NCBI RefSeq assembly: GCF_947581785.1
Contig: NZ_CANPVO010000011.1
Location: 1,850-65,849, forward strand
Direction of reading: 5' to 3'
Source: Candidatus Palauibacter polyketidifaciens
GTDB lineage: Bacteria; Gemmatimonadota; Gemmatimonadetes; Palauibacterales; Palauibacteraceae
Length of the DNA stretch: 64,000 bases
Part shown: positions 35,369 through 52,074 of the stretch, piece by piece
How positions within the stretch are numbered: the first letter of the stretch is position 1
Layout of the letters: each line of letters begins with the position of its first letter
Notes under the pieces: model-generated
Told to the model about the DNA's origin: nothing
Database searches by the model: none
What the model saw: only the letters and a program-made list of their open reading frames with translations
Position numbers and translations under genes: made by a program

Positions 35369-37669
35369 TTACATCAGGCCGTCGGAGTATATGTGGAGGC
35401 GCCAGAGGCTGCCGCCGCGGATGGCGCGGGCGATGTCGATGCGAAACAGGCCGTCCAGGAGAGACACGCCGACGCCCACGCTCGACCGCCAGCCCTCCGT
35501 GCCGAAGGCGTCCACGGGGCCCGTCCAGCCCGTGTCCCAGAACCCCGTGATCCGCATCGGGCTGCCCCCGACGTCGTACGTGGGATCGCCGATCCGGAAA
35601 CCGCGCCCCAGTTCCAATCGGCCGAACCAGAAGCTGTCGCCTCCGGTCGACACGGGATCGAAGGCCCGCAAGGTGTACGATCCGCCGAGGTGGAAGCGAC
35701 GCTGTGGAGGCGGCTCTCCGAATACTCTTCCGGCCCCGCCCTCCAGCGCCAGCGACCACTCGCTCACGGGGAGTTGCAGCGCCGCGGAGACGGCGGCGCG
35801 CCCGTAAAGATCGAAATCGCCCGTCGCGACTTCTCCCCAAACGGACCCGCTGAGGATCGGCGTGCCCGGGTCGACGGAGGAAAACGCGCGCAGGCGGCCC
35901 GAGACGCCGGCGAGATCTCCGCGCGCGGCGACGATGTTGTCCGGAAAGACCGCGTCGCCGAAGAGGTTCGGGAGCGAGGCGTCGCTCTGCTTCCGTGCGT
36001 TCTGGTGGCGCTCGGCGAAGAGGGCGCCTTCCACGCGCGTCCTCTTGCCGTGGCGGTTCGCCGAGACCTCGAAGCCGGTCTCGCGGAAGTAGAGGCCCTC
36101 GTCGTACCCCACAACCAAGCTGTTGAAGGAGTTGCCGAAGGAGAGCGGACGGCCCCAGTCCCCGAGGTCCGCGAGGCGCCGGTACGCCGTGATCCCGAAA
36201 CCGCCCGTCGCCGTCTGGCGCCGCCACCCGACCTCCACGCCCGGCTCCCACTCCGGTATGCCGATTCGCGGCGTGACCGCGAACTCGGACGTGACCCCCG
36301 TCGGCACGGCTAACCGGGCGCTGACCGACAGTCCCTCGACCCGATTGTAGCGGAGCCTGCGCAGACCCGGGGAAAGATCCAGACGGGGACTCAGGCCCAC
36401 GGCGGCGGGGATCTGCAGCGAGGACAAACGATCCTTCAGGTCGTCGAGCTCCGCCGTCGCGAAGGCGTCGACGGTGGCGGAAAAGAGCGGCTCCGGAAGC
36501 TCCGGGTACGCGGGAAGCTGATCGAGGGGCGGGACGATCGTCACGATGGGATGGACCCTGGCGGGGAGCGAATCCGCTTCCGCCGTCAACGGGTCGTCGC
36601 GAAATCCCTCGACTCGCCCCTCTTCGCCCTCTTCCCCCTCGAGCTCATCCGCGTCGATGACCTCGTCGACCCAGCGCGTCCAGCCCTCCGGCAGATCCTC
36701 CCCCGGATCGAGCGTCTGCTCGGCGTCGACGAGGTAGTCCTCGAAGATCCATTCGTAACGCACGGGCATGCTCGCGAGGTCCGCCATCGTGGCAACCGCA
36801 TCGAAGGCCATGCGATTCGGCAGCCACCAGCGCAATTCCTGGAGTCCGTAGTCGATCGTGATGAAGTCGACCCTGGCGCGGATCGGCTTCACAAACCCGG
36901 GAACATCCTCCGCATCCTCCGGTTCTTCGCGCTCGAAGTCGTATTCGATCGCGGGACGGTAGGCGGCGCGCGTGAGGACGCCCTCGTCGGCGTCAAACCA
37001 GAGCGAGCCCGCGATGCGGTCGAAGCGGGCCTCCCGCGGCTCGACGACCGCCTCGATCAGCGTCACCTCCCGGTTGTCCCCCGGGAAGCGGATGCGCAGC
37101 GTGTCGCCGGAGCGATAGCGGTAGTGATAGGCCGCAGTATCCGCCAGGGGATGGAGGGCCCACTCCGAGCCCAGGGCCAGGTGTTCGCTGGCCGGATCGA
37201 TGATGTCGAAATCGAGTTCGAACGCATCGTCGTCGCGCAGGTCGTCCTCGAACTCGACGCCGAGGCCGACGATCGGCACGCCGCGTCGCAGTCCCAGCCA
37301 ACGGATGATGTGTTCGCCCTCCGCCGCCCAGCGCAGCCGTGCGGCGCGTTCCTGGTGAAACACCGCCCGCTCCCGGCGCAGGGCCGCACCGCCCAGTCCC
37401 GCGTAGATGCGCTCGCGAAAAGTCGTCTCGAAGCTGGTCAGCCCTTCGGCCCGAGCCTTCCGCTGCGCCAGCGCGCGCTCGATCAGTCCCGCGATCCCTT
37501 CGTCGGCGTAGGCGTCGACCGGAATCGGCCGCGAGGCGGAGACGGGCGCCTCCTGGAGCGCGCGCGCGTCGAACGCGGCGCCCGCGGCGGCTCCCAGGCA
37601 CACCGCAAGCGCGAGGGCGCGTCCGGCAGCAGACATTCGGTTCAAGAGCGCTCTCCAGTCCAGAGCCAC
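35369..37669 (-). CDS. Large hypothetical secreted/outer-membrane protein with a C-terminal beta-rich (possibly beta-barrel) region
   Basis: Signal peptide present. An acidic central region follows. The C-terminal roughly 330 aa have alternating aromatic and Gly residues typical of beta-barrels (GFWDTGWTG...RIDIARAIRGGSLWRLHIYSDGLM). Confidence 0.55.
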   Translation of the reverse strand: MALDWRALLNRMSAAGRALALAVCLGAAAGAAFDARALQEAPVSASRPIPVDAYADEGIAGLIERALAQRKARAEGLTSFETTFRERIYAGLGGAALRRERAVFHQERAARLRWAAEGEHIIRWLGLRRGVPIVGLGVEFEDDLRDDDAFELDFDIIDPASEHLALGSEWALHPLADTAAYHYRYRSGDTLRIRFPGDNREVTLIEAVVEPREARFDRIAGSLWFDADEGVLTRAAYRPAIEYDFEREEPEDAEDVPGFVKPIRARVDFITIDYGLQELRWWLPNRMAFDAVATMADLASMPVRYEWIFEDYLVDAEQTLDPGEDLPEGWTRWVDEVIDADELEGEEGEEGRVEGFRDDPLTAEADSLPARVHPIVTIVPPLDQLPAYPELPEPLFSATVDAFATAELDDLKDRLSSLQIPAAVGLSPRLDLSPGLRRLRYNRVEGLSVSARLAVPTGVTSEFAVTPRIGIPEWEPGVEVGWRRQTATGGFGITAYRRLADLGDWGRPLSFGNSFNSLVVGYDEGLYFRETGFEVSANRHGKRTRVEGALFAERHQNARKQSDASLPNLFGDAVFPDNIVAARGDLAGVSGRLRAFSSVDPGTPILSGSVWGEVATGDFDLYGRAAVSAALQLPVSEWSLALEGGAGRVFGEPPPQRRFHLGGSYTLRAFDPVSTGGDSFWFGRLELGRGFRIGDPTYDVGGSPMRITGFWDTGWTGPVDAFGTEGWRSSVGVGVSLLDGLFRIDIARAIRGGSLWRLHIYSDGLM

Positions 37670-37792
37670 GACCCCTCCCGACGGGAGCCGTTACGTCTAT
37701 GTTCGGGTAGACGTTTCAACCTTCGCCCGCGTCACGGGGTCCGCGTCACCGGGCCCGCGTCACCGGGCCCGCGTCACCGGGGAGGAGAGCGA

Positions 37793-39523: not shown

Positions 39524-40348
39524 ATGAGTGCGTTGGAGCCGGGAAGCATAAGCGCCCGTTTGGCGGCACTGACCCTTGTCGCCGGAGGCGTGCTGGCGGG
39601 TTCGCCGGGCGCGGCTGTGGCGCAGGAGGAGACGGAACGGCAGACGGCGGAGCTGATCGGGCAGGTGGTCAGCGCCTCGACGGGGCTTCCGATCGAAGGG
39701 GCACGCGTGATCCTCATGGGCTCCGGGTACGGGGCGATCACCGATGTCGAAGGCAACTTCCGGGTCCCGCAGACCTGGGCCGGCAGGGACTCGATCGAGG
39801 TCCGGTTCATCGGCTACGAAGCCGGCTATACGCACATCGACCTCGAGCCCGGGCAGACGACACGCGTCACCCTGACCCTTTCGAGCACCGTCATTCGCAT
39901 CGCGGATCTCACCGTGGAGGTCCGCCAGACCCGCCGCGCGCGGAACCTCGAGGGCTTCCTCGAACGCAGGGGACGGGGATTCGGGACCTTCTTCACGCCG
40001 CGGGACATCATCAACCGCAACCCGCGGCTCCCCAGCGACCTCCTGCGCGGCCTGCCGAACGTCTCCGTGGGCCGAATCGAATACGGGATCGCGAAAGTCT
40101 TCCTCGGCGACGGCGCGCGGCTCAACTGTCCGCCGGCGCTCTACCTGGACGGGATGTACCAGGCGGGGATGCAGTTCGACGACCTCCCGAGGGACGACCT
40201 GGGCGCGGTCGAGGTCTACAAGCGTGAGGTCGAGACGCCCATGGAATTTATGCGCACAGGCTCGACCTGCGGCGCGATCGTCGTGTGGACGCCGAGCGGC
40301 GCGGGCTTCCTGGACTGGGCCGGGGACCTTCCCAATCCCTTCGAATAG
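39524..40348 (+). CDS. Secreted protein with a carboxypeptidase-regulatory-like (CarbopepD_reg) domain plus a TonB-dependent-receptor plug-like domain, and no beta-barrel. Paralogue of 50977..52074.
   Basis: Signal peptide present. QVVSASTGLPIEGARVILMGSGYGAITDVEGNFRV is CarbopepD_reg-like. DLLRGLPNVSV is plug-like. The C-terminus CGAIVVWTPS is shared with the paralogue (CGVVVIWTKS). Confidence 0.6.
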   Translation: MSALEPGSISARLAALTLVAGGVLAGSPGAAVAQEETERQTAELIGQVVSASTGLPIEGARVILMGSGYGAITDVEGNFRVPQTWAGRDSIEVRFIGYEAGYTHIDLEPGQTTRVTLTLSSTVIRIADLTVEVRQTRRARNLEGFLERRGRGFGTFFTPRDIINRNPRLPSDLLRGLPNVSVGRIEYGIAKVFLGDGARLNCPPALYLDGMYQAGMQFDDLPRDDLGAVEVYKREVETPMEFMRTGSTCGAIVVWTPSGAGFLDWAGDLPNPFE

Positions 40349-42389: not shown

Positions 42390-44624
42390 TCAGCGGGCGA
42401 ACAGCTCCTCGACCGCGAGCCCCAACCGCAGCTTCCGTTCTATCGCCCCCTGCCAACCCGCCGGGCGGGCATCGAACAGGTTGTCGACGCCCGCCACGAG
42501 CTTGAGCCTCCGCCCGAGATCGACGGAGATCTGCAGGTCGATGGCCACGAACCGCTCCTGCGTGCCGATCCTCGCGTCGCTCCCGTCGGCGCCGGTTCCG
42601 ATGATCGGCGCGGCGCCCGTGAGATGTGCCGTGGCATCGAGCCGCAGCCCGGAGAGCGCCTCGGCGGTCCACGCCGCCCGGGCGCGCGCGGAATGTGCGG
42701 CGCGCCGGTCCAGCGGAAGCCCGGAGTCGACCGCGTACGCGTCGAGGTACGCGTAGCCCGCGGTGAACTCCGCGCGATCCAGGACGGCCCGGAGGCTGAA
42801 CTCGAACCCGCGCGTGATCGCGTCCGCGACGTTCCGCGGGGAGAAGACGAGGAGACCGCTCTCGGCATTACCGACGAACCCGGGCTCGATGAGGTTCCGA
42901 ATGCGGTTGGAGAAGGCCTCGACTTCCATCCGAAGGGTCGACGCCGGTTGCCATTCCACCCCGCCGGAGATGTTCCACGAGCGCTCCGGATCCAGATCCG
43001 GGAACCCCTGGAGGACGTAGCCGCCCCCCACGTTGACGAAGTTCCAGGCCAGCTCCTTGAAGGAGGGGGCCCGGAAGCCGCGGGCCACCGCCGCGCGGAG
43101 GTGCACGTGCTCCCCGGCGCGACGTGTGACGCCGACGGTCGGCGAGAGGTTGGAGCCCCAGCGGTCGTTCCAGGTGAGGCGGGCGCCCCCGCTCACGACG
43201 GTCCCCCCGAGACGCCACGCGTCCTGCGCGAAGAGCGCGAGCTGTTGGTCGGCCGCGCGCTCCTCGACCAGCTTGTCGGGCGACCGGATCGCGCGGCTCG
43301 CGACCTCGAAGCCGACATCGACGGAGTGTCCACCCAGGACGGCGGAATACCCCGCGGCACCCTTCGCCAGGCGTTCCCACTGGGTGTCGTCACCCTCATC
43401 GGCGATGGGGGCGTCTCCACGGGCGCTGCGGAACAGGTGCTCGTATTCCTGGAGAAAGAGACTTCCGCTCCACGTTCCGGCACCCAGCGGTCGCCGCGCC
43501 TCCACCGACCCCGAGAATCCCGCGTTGTCGTTGAACCCGGAGAACGCGCCGCCCACCGGCCAGCGCTGCCGCTCGCGGAGGTAGGTGGCGGTGGCGAGGA
43601 GGTCCCAGGCGTTCGATGCCTTGAACTGAAAGCGGGACCGGAAGTCCCAGACGCGGGCGAACGCGCTCCGCCCCCCATCGGCGAGCCCCGGGATCCGGTC
43701 TTCCTGGCGCCAGCCGCCCGTGATCCGGTACCGGAGACGGCCTCCACCGCTTGCCGTCGCCTCCGCCTCGCGACGTCCGGCGCCGCCTGACACGGCGCGC
43801 GCATCGATCTGGAACCCCGAGGCGGGAAGCTGGGTGATGACGTTCACGACGCCGCCCAGAGCGTCGGAGCCGTAAAGGGACGACAACGGGCCCTTCACGA
43901 TCTCCACGCGCTCCACGCCCGCCAGCGACATGCGGCTCAGGTCGCGGTTTTCGAGCAGCGCGCCCGCGGTCGGCTGGCCATCGAGCAGGACGAGGACGCG
44001 CGCGCCACCGATGCCCCGGATCATGAGATTCGAGCCGACCGGGGTGCCGGCCGTCACCTGGACGCCGGGAATCTCTGCAAGCAGCCCGTCGGCGGAAGCC
44101 ACGCCGGCCGCGTCGATCTCCTCGGCCTCCACCGTCTCCATGGGCACGGCGATCTGCGAGCGGAGCCGCGGGAGTGAACTCGCCGTGACCACGATCTCGT
44201 CGAGGGCGAGCGGGTCGCGTTCGAGTCCGATCCGCCAGCCCGCCGCCGCCGCGTCCGCCCAGGCCAGCTTTCGCGGGAGGTATCCGAGCGCCGAGACCTC
44301 GATGCCTCCGTCGGGCCCCCAGGTGTCGTCCGGCGTAAGAACGCCGACGGAGTTGGTGCGTACCGAGGTCTGGTGGGGAGCCCGAGCCGGCGAACCCTCG
44401 GCACCGGGAGCCGCCGACCCCGCGGCGGCGCGAGCCGGGAGCCACGTCACCTCGGCGTCCGCGATCCCCGCCCCCGACGCCAGGTCGAAGATCCGACCCT
44501 GCGCCTGAGCCTGTGTCCGGGCCTGTCTCTCGGCCTGTATCCGGGCCTCGGCCGCAGCCGGAAGCAGGCTGCCGCCCAGTCCGAGGGCGGCGCTGAGGGT
44601 CAGGCGCGCGAGCGCGGGCGTCAC
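42390..44624 (-). CDS. TonB-dependent outer-membrane receptor with an N-terminal CarbopepD_reg-like domain. Likely the haem/haemophore receptor of the operon.
   Basis: Signal peptide from a GTG start. Plug motifs (IVVTASS, GVQV...RGIGGARVLVLLDGQP) are present. The barrel is about 550 aa. The stop abuts the gene end; only the N-terminal portion of the ORF-track extension is rejected. Confidence 0.85.
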   Translation of the reverse strand: MTPALARLTLSAALGLGGSLLPAAAEARIQAERQARTQAQAQGRIFDLASGAGIADAEVTWLPARAAAGSAAPGAEGSPARAPHQTSVRTNSVGVLTPDDTWGPDGGIEVSALGYLPRKLAWADAAAAGWRIGLERDPLALDEIVVTASSLPRLRSQIAVPMETVEAEEIDAAGVASADGLLAEIPGVQVTAGTPVGSNLMIRGIGGARVLVLLDGQPTAGALLENRDLSRMSLAGVERVEIVKGPLSSLYGSDALGGVVNVITQLPASGFQIDARAVSGGAGRREAEATASGGGRLRYRITGGWRQEDRIPGLADGGRSAFARVWDFRSRFQFKASNAWDLLATATYLRERQRWPVGGAFSGFNDNAGFSGSVEARRPLGAGTWSGSLFLQEYEHLFRSARGDAPIADEGDDTQWERLAKGAAGYSAVLGGHSVDVGFEVASRAIRSPDKLVEERAADQQLALFAQDAWRLGGTVVSGGARLTWNDRWGSNLSPTVGVTRRAGEHVHLRAAVARGFRAPSFKELAWNFVNVGGGYVLQGFPDLDPERSWNISGGVEWQPASTLRMEVEAFSNRIRNLIEPGFVGNAESGLLVFSPRNVADAITRGFEFSLRAVLDRAEFTAGYAYLDAYAVDSGLPLDRRAAHSARARAAWTAEALSGLRLDATAHLTGAAPIIGTGADGSDARIGTQERFVAIDLQISVDLGRRLKLVAGVDNLFDARPAGWQGAIERKLRLGLAVEELFAR

Positions 44625-45697
44625 CGGAGCCGCTGGAACCTCACCGACGGATGGCCCGAATCCCCGGTCGCGTTGTAGTAGTCGAAGAGCTGCACCTTGT
44701 AGACCTCCGCGCCCACGCGGACGAAGTAGACGTTGTAGGTCGGCCACATTCGATTGTTCTGCCGGATGCTGTACCAGAACGCGCCCTGCGCATCTCCCAC
44801 CGTGGCCGGAAACGCGCCGGCGATCGTCGAGAGGAAGCCGGCGTAATCCGGAGCGTCGTCCGCCCGGGCGAGCGCCGTGAAGTCGTCCGTCGGGTCGAGC
44901 GGGAAGGTTCCCGCGCCGCAGGCCTCGTTCACCTGTATCGTGAATTCGGGCGATGTCGCGACGTCCCAGCCGCAACCGGCGGGGTCGCGCACGATCCCGT
45001 TCGACAGGCTCACGAAGACGGGACCGCGCGTGAGGTCCAGCGCCAGGCTTTCCGGCGCGCCGAGGCTGCCGCCCGGGTCGTGACGGCGGAACTGGATCGT
45101 CGCGCCCACGGGCCTCTCGCCCTGCATCGCGATCTCCACCATGCGAATCACGCCGTATCCGCGCCCCGAACCCTCTCGCAGCTTCCAGGCCGCGCCGGGG
45201 TTCGCCATGATCGAGCCCGACTGGCGGTCGAAGCGGAACCACGACGGTCCCGTCTCCGGCGCCAGGGCATCCTCGACGAATCCCCCCGCCGGAATGTCGG
45301 CGGCGGTGACCGCCGCGAACGCCGCTTCGCCGTCTTCCGGCGTCAGCGCGGCGACCTGATCCGCGGTCAGCCCCGCGTTGTTCCCCAGGCTGACCGCGGA
45401 GACGCTGCCGGGGCCCGCGACGCCGCCGTTCAGCCGCACGGAAAACCTGCGGAAGGCCATGTCCCACGCTGTGGAACCACCCGGGTCCGCCGGGCTCGGG
45501 AGCGCCCCGCCACCGGTCAGACTCACGTAGCCGAAGGAGACGGGCGAGGAGGCGTCGATCGTGAGCACCCCTTCTTCGAACGTCTCTTCGGCGGGGGCGG
45601 CGACTTCCGACTCGCAGGCCGCAAGGGCGGCGAGCGCGAGTGGAATCATCAGTGCGCGGAACGGGATCCGCGCCGGGAGAAGTGTGCTTCTGGACAT
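44621..45697 (-). CDS. hmuY: HmuY-family haem-binding lipoprotein (duplicated/extended form)
   Basis: Lipobox LAACES. LTIDAS...WDMAFRRFSVRLNGG matches the P. gingivalis HmuY core (TIDAS...WDMALHRYDVRLNCG). C-terminus PTYNVYFVRVGAEVYKVQLFDYYN. ATGA overlap with the receptor gene. Confidence 0.7.
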   Translation of the reverse strand: MSRSTLLPARIPFRALMIPLALAALAACESEVAAPAEETFEEGVLTIDASSPVSFGYVSLTGGGALPSPADPGGSTAWDMAFRRFSVRLNGGVAGPGSVSAVSLGNNAGLTADQVAALTPEDGEAAFAAVTAADIPAGGFVEDALAPETGPSWFRFDRQSGSIMANPGAAWKLREGSGRGYGVIRMVEIAMQGERPVGATIQFRRHDPGGSLGAPESLALDLTRGPVFVSLSNGIVRDPAGCGWDVATSPEFTIQVNEACGAGTFPLDPTDDFTALARADDAPDYAGFLSTIAGAFPATVGDAQGAFWYSIRQNNRMWPTYNVYFVRVGAEVYKVQLFDYYNATGDSGHPSVRFQRLR

Positions 45698-45720
45698 GTG
45701 GTCCGTCTCCGTGTCGAGAG

Positions 45721-46749
45721 CTAGCGCCGTGCGAGGTTTCGTGACTGTCCGCGGGGGGGCGACGGCGCCCGCCCGCCCGCGGAGGCTGAACAGGGTCCGA
45801 GCGGTGAGACGAGACCGGTGGCGCAGAACCGCGCCGCCGCCCTCTCCGCGATCCAGTCCGTGATCAGGGGATGGGGGAGGAAGCCTTCGGTGGCGACGTA
45901 CTCGAGACCTTCCAGCACGTCGGCGTAGGGTCCGAAGCCGGACACGCGGTACGGGACCACGAGGACGTGCCGGTAACGCTCTCCCATTCCGGCGACGAGC
46001 GATTTGATCCGCTCCTCCGCCTCCTCCCGTGCGCCGGCCCAGTCTTCCCTGAGCGTCCCGACGTGGACTTCGGCGTAGCCGCCGGTCCGCAGGGCCTCGG
46101 CCGCATCCTCCATGGAGCGGAGCACCTGTCGGTCCTCGCCATCATCGCCCATGCCGTGGGCGAGGAGCAGCACGCCGCTCTGGGCGGGGGGTATCCCGGC
46201 GGTCGCGGCCCTGTCGACCAGGATGCGAGCCGCCTGGCCGGACCCTCCCAACCCCTCCCGCACCAGCAGGATCCGGCTGCCGTTCGCGAGGGGATCGAGT
46301 TCCGTCCCGCTCACCATTCGGTGCCCCACCATCGCGCGCTCCGGGGGGTCGGGACGGAGGCCGAGGAGGAATTCCGTCGGATGCAGGAACGACGCTCCCG
46401 ACACGAACAGCCTCACGACGGCCACCGTGTTCACGCCCTCTTCCGCGAGAGAGTCCAGGGCGGACTGCATCGTCGCGGGGTCAGCCATCCCCAGCGCGAG
46501 CGACACGGGGATCCGGTCGCGCAGCGGCCGCAGGGCTTCCTCGACCCGTCCGTTCCACTCCGCCCCACCCCCATGCGCCATGACGAGGATCCCGGGACGT
46601 GGCACCGATTCCAGCGTGACTCCCCGATGCTCCGGGCGGGAGGTGAGTTCGACGGTGGGCTGCGGCCCCCCTGCGGAGGCGCACCCGCTCAACATCCAGA
46701 GCAATCCGAAGGCGGCGAACGGCGCGCGCGCCTGTGATCCGTTCAACAT
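45721..46749 (-). CDS. CbiX-like (class II chelatase fold) two-domain protein, first gene of the haem-uptake operon
   Basis: GILVMAHGG and GVLLLAHGMGDDGE, two CbiX-like modules. Lipoprotein-like N-terminus WMLSGCASAGG. Start taken at MLNGSQ because the upstream extension translates the Fur box. Confidence 0.65.
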   Translation of the reverse strand: MLNGSQARAPFAAFGLLWMLSGCASAGGPQPTVELTSRPEHRGVTLESVPRPGILVMAHGGGAEWNGRVEEALRPLRDRIPVSLALGMADPATMQSALDSLAEEGVNTVAVVRLFVSGASFLHPTEFLLGLRPDPPERAMVGHRMVSGTELDPLANGSRILLVREGLGGSGQAARILVDRAATAGIPPAQSGVLLLAHGMGDDGEDRQVLRSMEDAAEALRTGGYAEVHVGTLREDWAGAREEAEERIKSLVAGMGERYRHVLVVPYRVSGFGPYADVLEGLEYVATEGFLPHPLITDWIAERAAARFCATGLVSPLGPCSASAGGRAPSPPRGQSRNLARR

Positions 46750-46765
46750 CGGCTCAACCTTGTCA

Positions 46766-46789
46766 ATAATGATAATGAGAATCATTCTC
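46766..46789. promoter_or_regulatory. Fur box (aataat gataat gagaat cattctc), 17/19 match to the GATAATGATAATCATTATC consensus
   Basis: Read directly in an otherwise about 70% GC genome. Centred about 25 bp upstream of the cbiX-like start. Contains the palindrome GAGAATcATTCTC. Confidence 0.75.
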
Positions 46790-46924
46790 AACTAGAACCG
46801 TCAAATGATGATGCACGTCGCGAGGGGGGGATGGCAAGCGGCAATTCGGCCGGCGGCCAGCGGGGACGGCCCGGCGGCTAACGGGGACCGCGGGCGCCGG
46901 AAGGGACGTTGGCAAAGATACCGT

Positions 46925-50327: not shown

Positions 50328-50852
50328 CTACCGGGAGCGGCGGGACTGCGCGTCCCGCCGTGCTCCCGGAATCCACCGGGGGATGTCGCGGCAGTAGTCG
50401 TCGAATGCATCGCCGAACGTCCGACGGAGATCCGGCTCCTCCCTTCGTACGACGAAGAGGGTCAGCCACAGCCAGTAGGCCAGCGCGTAGACGAGCAACG
50501 CCATGGATGAGAAGAACACGGCCTCGGAGAAGAGGGTGAGGACCACGCCCAGGAGAAGCGGATGGCGAGTGCGTCCATACCAACCGTCCGTCACGAGCAC
50601 GCTGGGCGCGATTCCGGGGATGGCGGATGTCCGCCTCCGCAGGAGCCGGCTGGCCGCCCACAGGTAGAGATAGAAGCCGAATCCCGCCACAGGAACGCCC
50701 AGCCAGCGAAGAGTCCCGATGTCCGCCGATGGTAGCGGGATCGCCTGGGAGCGCTGGAGAATGAGTGCCGGGAGCCCCACCACGAAGACGCCGTACAGCA
50801 CGATCGCCGTGAGGATCGTTTTCAACGCTGCGGCGTGCGGGCGCTTCATCAT
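50328..50852 (-). CDS. Isoprenylcysteine carboxyl methyltransferase (ICMT)/phospholipid methyltransferase-like membrane protein
   Basis: Four to five TM segments. The C-terminal VTDGWYGRTRHPLLLGVVL...EEPDLRRTFGDAFDDY matches the ICMT/PEMT conserved region. Confidence 0.65.
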   Translation of the reverse strand: MMKRPHAAALKTILTAIVLYGVFVVGLPALILQRSQAIPLPSADIGTLRWLGVPVAGFGFYLYLWAASRLLRRRTSAIPGIAPSVLVTDGWYGRTRHPLLLGVVLTLFSEAVFFSSMALLVYALAYWLWLTLFVVRREEPDLRRTFGDAFDDYCRDIPRWIPGARRDAQSRRSR

Positions 50853-50976
50853 TCGGACCTCGGCGTCGGGTATCGGGGCCATGTGACGCCGGGAGTGATT
50901 TCGGCGTCTTCCGGACAGCATCCGGGAACGTAGCCTCGCCACGCCTCCATCGGGACGGGCTATACACCTCGCGGGA

Positions 50977-52074
50977 GTGACGGACATGCATCACGGACGA
51001 GCGTTGGCTCTGGCCGTTCTGGTCGCGCTGCAACCGGTTGTCGTCCCCCTCGGTGTGGAGGGCCAGTCGATGGACGACTGCGACGGCCGGGCCTCCCTCC
51101 GGGTCTCGGTGGTGGACGAGTCCGGCGTCATTCCGATCCCCGGAGCCACCGTGGTCCTGCGCTGGACGGACGCGGTGCGGCGACCCGTGCGGGAAAGTGC
51201 CGGCACGGACGGACACTTGCTTCTCTGCGCTCCGCGGGACGCGGGCGAGGCCACGCTCTGGGCCGAGTTCGGAGACGCATCCAGCCCGGAAGCCGTCGTG
51301 GCTCTCGAAGCGGGGATGCCGCACGACGTGGAGCTTCGGCTCCTGCTCTCGGAGGCCGGCACCGGACGGCTCGTGGGCCGTGTCCGCGATGCCGCTACGG
51401 ATGAGCCCGTGGCCGCGGCGGCGGTGTCCATCCTCGGTGCCGCCGGCGTAGTCTCGAGCAATCGGCGGGGCCGCTTCGTCCTCAGCGGCGTCCCCGTCGG
51501 CCGGCGCGAGATCGCCATACGCCACATCGGGTATGCGCCCTTCCGCCATCCGGTCGCGGTGGCCCGCGGCCACACGACGGAAATCGAGATCGGTCTCGTC
51601 CCGGACCCGGTGGAGTTGGAGCCGCTGGTCGCGACCGTGCTACGGTCTCGCCGACTGGAGACCAGGGGCTTCTACGAGCGGAAATACTGGGGCGAACTGG
51701 TCGCAGGCGGCATGTTCTTCACGGCCGAGGACATCGAGCGCCGCAATCCCCTGCGGATCACGCAGATGGTCGCCGATATCCCGGGGATCCGACTCCGGAA
51801 CTGCGGCGTGCGGCAGAACAGCTGCAGGCTGTACAACACCCGGATATCGGATATCTCTTCGAACGATGGCTGCCTGATGAACATCTACCTGGACGGCAGC
51901 CTCATCGTCCGCAGGGGTCGGATCGGGGGCGGTGACGTACCGAACATCAACGATTTCGTTCTTCCGATCGAGATCGCGGGGGTCGAAGTGTACCTGGGCC
52001 CCTCCGAGCTGCCGGCCGAGTTCGTCGGGATGGAATCGCGCTGCGGCGTCGTCGTGATCTGGACGAAGTCTTGA
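50977..52074 (+). CDS. Second CarbopepD_reg-like plus plug-like barrel-less secreted protein (paralogue of 39524..40348)
   Basis: Signal peptide present. Two CarbopepD_reg-like modules (ASLRVSVVDESGVIPIPGATVVL; GRLVGRVRDAATDEPVAAAAVSILG...RRGRFVLSGVPVG). A plug-like segment follows (IRLRNCGVR). The same CGVVVIWTKS C-terminus. Confidence 0.6.
   Translation: MTDMHHGRALALAVLVALQPVVVPLGVEGQSMDDCDGRASLRVSVVDESGVIPIPGATVVLRWTDAVRRPVRESAGTDGHLLLCAPRDAGEATLWAEFGDASSPEAVVALEAGMPHDVELRLLLSEAGTGRLVGRVRDAATDEPVAAAAVSILGAAGVVSSNRRGRFVLSGVPVGRREIAIRHIGYAPFRHPVAVARGHTTEIEIGLVPDPVELEPLVATVLRSRRLETRGFYERKYWGELVAGGMFFTAEDIERRNPLRITQMVADIPGIRLRNCGVRQNSCRLYNTRISDISSNDGCLMNIYLDGSLIVRRGRIGGGDVPNINDFVLPIEIAGVEVYLGPSELPAEFVGMESRCGVVVIWTKS

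Follow-up and report, generated by a model that had tools for sequence, protein, structure and literature searches.

The 64 kb window analysed here (the whole stretch of DNA under study, from Candidatus Palauibacter polyketidifaciens; overall GC content 69.6%) carries a tight operon of three minus-strand genes, read from an ATG at position 46749, behind a Fur-type operator. The three genes encode a lipoprotein with a CbiX/SirB-like class II chelatase fold (gene 1), a long-form HmuY-family lipoprotein (gene 2) and a TonB-dependent receptor (gene 3), and their coordinates are collected with those of the promoter elements in Table 1. Genes 1 and 2 are separated by 23 nucleotides (nt), and gene 3 starts with a GTG at 44624 that runs into the TGA at the end of gene 2 (44623-44621) to give GTGA, in agreement with the three-gene minus-strand operon and the overlapping receptor start that had been proposed in an earlier reading of this DNA from its sequence alone (hereafter the sequence-only reading). 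All three products are secreted, two as lipoproteins and one as a beta-barrel. The closest relatives of the window were metagenome-assembled genomes (MAGs) of Gemmatimonadota, chiefly Candidatus Palauibacter and Longimicrobiales, many of which are sponge-derived.

Table 1 Features of the operon and its promoter region (positions within the 64 kb window; aa, amino acids).
Feature	Position	Strand	Description
Gene 1, class II chelatase-fold (CbiX/SirB-like) lipoprotein	45721..46749	-	342 aa; lipobox LSGC, Cys23
Gene 2, long-form HmuY-family lipoprotein	44621..45697	-	358 aa; lipobox LAAC, Cys28
Gene 3, TonB-dependent receptor	42390..44624	-	744 aa; signal peptide, N-terminal extension, plug, 22-strand-type barrel
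AT-rich region containing Fur box	46765-46789	+	AATAATGATAATGAGAATCATTCTC
Fur box 19-mer	46771..46789	+ (as read)	GATAATGAGAATCATTCTC; 17/19 vs E. coli consensus GATAATGATAATCATTATC
Core operator	46776-46790		TGAGAATCATTCTCA; perfect 7-1-7 palindrome (inverted repeat) TGAGAAT-C-ATTCTCA
AT-rich hexamer array	46765..46790	-	GAGAAT GATTCT CATTAT CATTAT; 23% GC
Candidate sigma-70-like promoter (weak)	46808..46837	-	TTGCCA, 18 nt, CATCAT; 9/12 in consensus scan

The AT-rich array upstream of gene 1 is the lowest-GC 26-mer of the window, and the Fur-box 19-mer within it is the sole match in the window to the E. coli consensus at three mismatches or fewer, where none was expected from 100 shuffles. 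Both the near-consensus Fur box and the AT-rich island had been pointed out in the sequence-only reading; its placement of the box upstream of the operon holds, but the distance to the gene 1 start is 21 nt from the 19-mer (15 nt from the end of the array) rather than about 25 bp. On the minus strand, GTTGAGAATGATTCTCATT agrees at 14 of 19 positions with the Fur box ATTTAGAATTATTCTAAAT of Riemerella anatipestifer (our own comparison, with the published box from PMC5609570), which is bound by Fur in an electrophoretic mobility shift assay (EMSA) and controls hmuY/hmuR among other genes (PMC5609570). Our results indicate that a Fur-family operator sits at the promoter of the operon, and if the candidate promoter of Table 1 is the one in use, the Fur box would lie just downstream of the transcription start. 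With regard to a second operator in the window, the only other match (50810-50824, TGAGGATCGTTTTCA) has 3 mismatches and is at chance level (0.45 expected per window). This weak operator-like site sits 75 nt 5' of a CarboxypepD_reg protein (50899-52074).

The operator recurs in related genomes, at positions that follow the same genes. In most of the related Gemmatimonadota loci, operon-type and solo alike, the form TGAGAAY-N-RTTCTCA was found a single time, directly 5' of the cbiX-like gene, and it is kept at that position in ~47 loci and absent elsewhere in 1.1 Mb. The Rhodothermales form, TTTAGAY-N3-RTCTAAA, is essentially the R. anatipestifer Fur box and stands in front of the cbiX-like gene as well as the receptor-hmuY pair (L016, L020, L023, L061, L081 and others). 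A generalised pattern that covers both forms gave 55 matches in 1.1 Mb, compared with 2.25 in shuffles, and all of them fell at promoters of cbiX-like or receptor(-hmuY) genes. Overall, ~55 of the 84 related loci have the operator, so that the Fur box is present in orthologous loci, where its absence would have counted against the sequence-only reading. We predict that the cognate regulator responds to iron and not to some other metal, because the operator resembles the EMSA-supported R. anatipestifer box and because one fusion homologue of gene 1, described below, adjoins a FUR gene. Searching with the Fur protein of that locus (L085) by tblastn recovered no Fur gene in the window or near the other loci.

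The class assignment of gene 1 required structure, because its sequence links to solved chelatases were not significant. Gene 1 scored 18 bits against the Pfam CbiX family (PF01903), below the cut-off of 22, had no significant match in the PDB by phmmer and did not match the CbiK profile; the profile of its own family retrieved only CbiX 3lyh from the PDB (E = 0.15). Among its homologues, L061 (24.5 bits), P0385 (37.3 bits) and P0285 (75.8 bits) are above the PF01903 cut-off. The AlphaFold2 model of gene 1, built from a 44-sequence alignment, had a predicted local distance difference test score (pLDDT) of 84.8 with a core above 90, and its best Foldseek matches were all class II chelatases: DR2241, Bacillus subtilis SirB (target template modelling score, TM, 0.73), the periplasmic CbiK of Desulfovibrio vulgaris, the coproporphyrin ferrochelatase CpfC and Paracoccus CbiX (4ccs). 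Many sugar-binding proteins were also listed, at a low TM of 0.25-0.35. By its predicted structure, gene 1 has the two-module (two-lobed) alpha/beta fold of the class II chelatases. The two-module CbiX-like assignment of the sequence-only reading is upheld as to the fold but not by the Pfam score.

What had escaped that reading is that gene 1 encodes a secreted lipoprotein (LSGC, Cys23), and this decides where it can act. The lipoprotein signal is common to most homologues, and it implies that gene 1 works outside the cytoplasm. The context typical of CbiX and SirB, which is cytoplasmic and tied to siroheme or cobalamin biosynthesis, was not encountered: neither the window nor the 84 related loci had cob, cbi, sir or other biosynthetic genes as neighbours, and the siroheme/cobalamin setting that had been raised as a challenge to the haem-related interpretation was absent from both. 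The gene 1 lipoprotein starts with CASAGG, without the acidic stretch after the cysteine that is seen in gene 2.

The family profile aligned the MAHGG motif of gene 1, whose histidine is H59, with the HGS histidine of CbiX. H59 and H123 are 64 residues apart, like the metal-binding pair of SirB (His10 and His76), and both are invariant in close homologues together with, among others, M88, H198, LREDW (233-237) and H293. Across 150 cluster representatives of the wider family, the best-kept positions were H59, M88, R180, H198, R234, D236, W237, R241, R268 and H293. We infer that this combination of histidine, methionine and several arginines would suit a tetrapyrrole site, as it is what such a site would need.

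Gene 2 is an HmuY-family protein by both profile and fold. It scored 41.6 bits against Pfam HmuY (PF14064, cut-off 27) over profile positions 7-156 of 157, and it matched Porphyromonas gingivalis HmuY (PDB 3h8t) by phmmer at E = 5e-6. The structural model was only moderate (pLDDT 65), and its only significant folds in Foldseek were HmuY (3h8t, 6ewm), BfrB (8b6a) and Tfo (6eu8), with E down to 2e-6 and a target TM of 0.53. The profile search that had been proposed as a check on the HmuY lipoprotein assignment therefore supports it, and the unusual length noted at the time (~360 aa; 358 aa in Table 1) is conserved as a family trait, with 185 homologues of ~355 aa. In the Pfam and PDB alignments, the extra ~160 residues sit between the N-terminal and C-terminal HmuY segments. 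An internal (tandem) duplication, as suspected in the sequence-only reading, is suggestive and not established: comparing one half with the other (hhalign) gave E = 1.1e-3 over 122 columns but a probability of 21%, and comparing the insert with the core gave a probability of 26-44% over just 40 columns. An invariant Cys-Glu (CESE) stands right after the gene 2 signal, with Cys28 at 45614-45616, and is similar to the acidic signal for surface export on lipoproteins of Bacteroidota. The gene 2 lipoprotein is probably surface-exposed.

Gene 3 was assigned as a TonB-dependent receptor, in line with the original proposal, by the Pfam Plug (83.5 bits) and TonB_dep_Rec barrel (139.9 bits) families. 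It contains a FRAP box (FRAPSFKEL) and a degenerate NPNL box (FPDL), and no conserved histidine was found between the FRAP and NPNL-like boxes in 34 orthologues. Its best NCBIfam match was TonB-B12 (152 bits), followed by TonB-hemin (138 bits, cut-off 317), and both scores are far below the cut-offs; its leading PDB matches were CirA, BtuB and FepA. The TonB-B12 score and the match to BtuB, together with the cobalamin/siroheme pathway fold of CbiX, could suggest that the cassette imports cobalamin, other corrinoids or other tetrapyrroles rather than haem, and that the CbiX-like protein handles corrinoids. We consider this highly improbable, given that all NCBIfam scores of gene 3 fall so short of their cut-offs, that an Rfam scan of the window detected no cobalamin riboswitch and no other Rfam family, and that cob and cbi genes are missing from the neighbourhood. 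In addition, the operon has a Fur-like regulator site and an HmuY-family partner, and the receptor part of the fusion homologue P0385 was best matched by TonB-hemin (226 bits, vs. 112 bits for TonB-B12).

A scan of one genome per species yielded 80 loci. The order cbiX-like gene, hmuY, receptor was found in ~35 loci from Palauibacter, Longimicrobiales and sponge MAGs labelled as Gammaproteobacteria. Rhodothermus MAGs have the receptor first, then a short HmuY (223 aa; Pfam 52.8 bits) and then the CbiX-like protein (24.5 bits), and in other Rhodothermales the receptor-HmuY pair lies 2.5 kb from the cbiX-like gene. Clustering of open reading frames (ORFs) from 49 loci revealed no conserved neighbours of solo cbiX-like genes except for these receptor-HmuY pairs in Rhodothermales. 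Taken together, the alternate gene orders, the solo cbiX-like genes and the HmuY-receptor pairs without a cbiX-like gene show that the parts of the cassette are separable modules that have been repeatedly joined. An inner-membrane transporter gene was linked in none of the ~40 operon-type loci. The gene 1 family itself is large: an exhaustive search with the family profile returned 1,101 clusters with E <=1e-3, i.e., ~1,100 clusters at 50% identity from Gemmatimonadota, Rhodothermales, Acidobacteriota and other phyla.

In L010 (7001-8541; Candidatus Palauibacter poriticola) the cbiX-like gene is intact and has its Fur box, but what remains of hmuY (query residues 89-132) and of the receptor (678-744) downstream is fragmentary, as if an operon copy had decayed. 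In L013 (7001-7964) the cbiX-like match is in two overlapping pieces, which may reflect a frameshift; here the operator is retained, and no hmuY or receptor gene follows.

A link between the chelatase-like protein and a receptor came from P0385, a natural fusion of 1,069 aa that joins a CbiX-like domain to CarboxypepD_reg, Plug and TonB barrel domains. The N-terminus of TonB-dependent receptors is periplasmic, and because the CbiX-like domain is fused to this N-terminus, P0385 would put the chelatase-like part of the protein where a haem-type receptor opens into the periplasm. At this locus (L085 1899-5804), a FUR-family gene lies directly 5' of the fusion gene, and no recognisable operator was found in the 190-nt gap between the two. 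Other architectures in the family (P0292, P0389, P0324 and ~570-aa proteins) combine a CbiX-like domain with an AhpC/TSA redoxin, four CbiX modules with FmdE and Cu_amine_oxidN1, or a CbiX-like domain with WD40, and also include many tandem double-length forms. In L086 (122-4492), PALP and OCD_Mu_crystall genes come after the gene for a CbiX-like protein of double length. Such a pair is characteristic of SbnA/SbnB, the makers of a siderophore precursor, and these neighbours are another iron-related context for the family.

Based on these observations, we propose that the operon is a Fur-repressed and self-contained cassette that takes iron from haem or a related metalloporphyrin while acting wholly in the outer membrane and periplasm, an interpretation to which we assign a probability of roughly 0.5. 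At low iron, Fur would leave the operator and the operon would be transcribed. The HmuY-like lipoprotein would then capture haem, probably at the cell surface, and pass it to the receptor for import with TonB energy. The CbiX/SirB-like lipoprotein, anchored on the periplasmic side, would receive the tetrapyrrole as it leaves the receptor and most likely run the chelatase reaction backwards, freeing Fe2+ that could enter through general inner-membrane iron importers. Release of Fe2+ on the spot would explain a cassette without an inner-membrane transporter of its own. The dechelatase step is the least secure part of this mechanism and is best seen as a plausible hypothesis. The more general idea, that the CbiX/SirB-like family is a small ATP-independent periplasmic haem dechelatase, the class II counterpart of the class I HmuS, which docks (and is sometimes fused) at the periplasmic exit of haem receptors, is offered tentatively, as a possibility that we would not yet favour.

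Several observations weigh against the haem-iron cassette and need to be considered alongside it. A different member of the Fur family, e.g., Zur or Mur, could be the regulator that uses this operator. The scores of gene 3 against BtuB and CirA are as good as those against haem receptors, so that its substrate class is not readable from sequence. In gene 2, the canonical histidine ligands of haem are not conserved, and no histidine is invariant in 44 homologues. The axial ligands of HmuY are His134 and His166 in P. gingivalis and Met/Met in Tfo-type proteins; His166 of P. gingivalis aligns near N314 of gene 2, and position 317 is either M or L. Further candidate ligands, namely M191, Y285, Y309, Y340 and Y341, are invariant among the gene 2 homologues. 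In gene 1, position 123, the second histidine of the SirB-type pair, is E, H, D or A across the 150 representatives of the wider family, in much of which the histidine has been replaced. Many cbiX-like genes are solo, which means that the partnership with hmuY and the receptor is not obligatory, and L088-L093 hold long HmuY-receptor pairs at ~52% identity with neither a cbiX-like neighbour nor the operator. Finally, FetB, the closest studied analogue of the gene 1 family, is a Co/Mn chelatase that showed no reverse activity with haemin in vitro (PMC13065792).

This last result also bears on the possibility that the uptake system is the one outlined above but with a CbiX-like lipoprotein that has no catalytic role and instead binds haem in the periplasm, as a receiver or chaperone at the receptor exit. 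Haem would then travel on intact to a transporter for it in the inner membrane and to a haem oxygenase, both of which would be encoded elsewhere in the genome. Both FetB and the periplasmic CbiK of D. vulgaris bind haem or porphyrins (PMC13065792), and the conserved Met/His/Arg pattern of gene 1 would suit simple haem ligation. The class II chelatase fold is, moreover, related to periplasmic binding proteins, as reflected in the sugar-binding matches from Foldseek, although at the low TM given above. However, neither a lipoprotein tethered to the membrane nor a receptor-fused domain such as that of P0385 is well suited to moving across the periplasm, none of the operon-type loci has a linked inner-membrane transporter gene, and the SirB-type pair H59/H123 is kept in the close family. 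We therefore regard a purely non-catalytic receiver as unlikely and favour processing on the spot over shuttling, because of the missing transporter and because gene 1 is membrane-tethered or receptor-fused.

A further possibility is that the chelatase works in the forward direction, i.e., that the CbiX-like lipoprotein inserts a metal (for example Mn, Co, Zn or Ni) into a porphyrin that is imported or resides in the periplasm, or is a periplasmic metal chaperone, and that the operon is not primarily for iron supply. This would be in line with FetB, which inserts Co and Mn and is needed for production of Mn-protoporphyrin IX (PMC13065792), with a fold and histidine pair that match metal-inserting enzymes, and with the many solo members of the family. 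It appears quite unlikely to us considering that the conservation of a Fur-type operator across two phyla argues for iron supply, that the family is linked to haem-type receptors (in one case by fusion), and that inserting iron into porphyrin during iron starvation would be counterproductive.

The genes that flank the operon are unrelated to it: on the upstream side there is a pyrroloquinoline quinone (PQQ) dehydrogenase, encoded on the same strand, and on the downstream side an M20 peptidase in convergent orientation, and genes for a resistance-nodulation-division (RND) efflux pump, a signal peptidase, RidA and RecQ are found farther away. Elsewhere in the window, CarboxypepD_reg, which is an N-terminal module in many TonB-dependent receptors, occurs in two short secreted proteins without a barrel (39524-40348 and 50899-52074, both on the plus strand). 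An ORF on the minus strand (35369-37690, 773 aa) with coding-type composition (GC at third codon positions 0.86) had no Pfam match at E <=1e-3.

Precedents exist for HmuY-receptor pairs, for their control by Fur and for secreted class II chelatases next to TonB receptors. What is new in the present operon is a chelatase partner that comes from an uncharacterised CbiX/SirB-like family rather than from CbiK or CobN, and the combination of this partner with a long form of HmuY in a three-gene unit that is without inner-membrane components. Also new are the lineages (Gemmatimonadota and Rhodothermales) and the natural fusion to a receptor. Release of haem iron without an oxygen-dependent cleavage of the ring has been solved only recently in gut Bacteroidota, with HmuS, and is still a question for IhtB/FetB and for the periplasmic CbiK of D. 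vulgaris (CbiK-P). The locus defines a large family with the class II chelatase fold and three independent ties to the components of haem uptake (operon, conserved operator and receptor fusion), and the members of this family are clean candidates for asking whether class II chelatases run in reverse in the periplasm. For Gemmatimonadota, including the little-known sponge-associated Palauibacter lineage, the locus also provides a first look at a Fur-type operator and at iron acquisition related to haem. If a class II dechelatase is indeed at work, environmental and sponge-associated bacteria would obtain haem iron with neither an inner-membrane haem transporter nor a haem oxygenase.

Compared with known systems, gene 1 shares with B. 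subtilis SirB (5zt8/5zt9, TM 0.73) and with CbiX (4ccs) the two-module architecture, and its HG histidine aligns with theirs; a second histidine, ~64 residues on, is invariant in close homologues of gene 1 and varies in the wider family. SirB and CbiX are cytoplasmic enzymes of siroheme and cobalamin synthesis, whereas gene 1 is a secreted lipoprotein under a Fur box, and it differs from them by additional conserved elements (LREDW, H198, H293 and a Cys pair) and by a sequence similarity that is below the Pfam cut-off. The CbiK-P of D. vulgaris (PDB 2xvx, 2xvz; Foldseek E = 1.4e-6) is a class II chelatase and, like gene 1, is secreted; it binds haem, with a presumed role in transporting haem or iron and not in biosynthesis (PMC12094164, PMC13065792). 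It belongs to the CbiK subfamily, however, and is soluble in the periplasm without an HmuY or TonB receptor partner, while gene 1 is a lipoprotein with both.

Another close precedent is the Iht system of P. gingivalis, in which the CbiK-like lipoprotein IhtB/FetB lies beside the TonB receptor IhtA and has long been proposed to act on haem iron (PMC12094164). The structure of FetB has been solved (PDB 9B86), and the protein inserts Co and Mn into a porphyrin analogue (PMC13065792). Here, as in the window operon, an extracytoplasmic lipoprotein with a class II chelatase fold accompanies a TonB-dependent receptor, with a proposed role in haem iron (PMC12094164, PMC13065792). FetB is 37% identical to CbiK of Salmonella and falls within that family, whereas gene 1 is CbiX/SirB-like, without a match to the CbiK profile, and its model is closer to SirB (TM 0.73) than to periplasmic CbiK (TM 0.58). 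The two systems also differ in their partners, as Iht has the ATP-binding cassette (ABC) transporter IhtCDE and no HmuY, and the window operon has HmuY and no ABC transporter. IhtB has been reported to be surface-exposed, whereas the fusion architecture in the gene 1 family suggests a periplasmic location.

The comparison with HmuS that was made in the sequence-only reading overlooked the closer precedents of IhtB/FetB and CbiK-P. Like the window operon, the hmuYRSTUV loci of Bacteroidota combine an HmuY lipoprotein, a TonB-dependent receptor and a protein of the chelatase superfamily, and in R. anatipestifer hmuY/hmuR are regulated by Fur (PMC5609570), which parallels the Fur-type operator found here. 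In the published model, HmuS removes the iron of haem in the periplasm, and FeoB imports the Fe2+ (PMC12583661); the mechanism that we propose for the window operon runs parallel to this and to the proposal made for IhtB (PMC12094164). Within class I, HmuS is large and CobN-like, and its partners are HmuTUV, whereas the partner in the window is a small class II protein of ~320 aa in an operon without HmuTUV genes. The window operon further departs from the hmu arrangement in having the chelatase gene first and an HmuY of ~355 aa, compared with ~215 aa.

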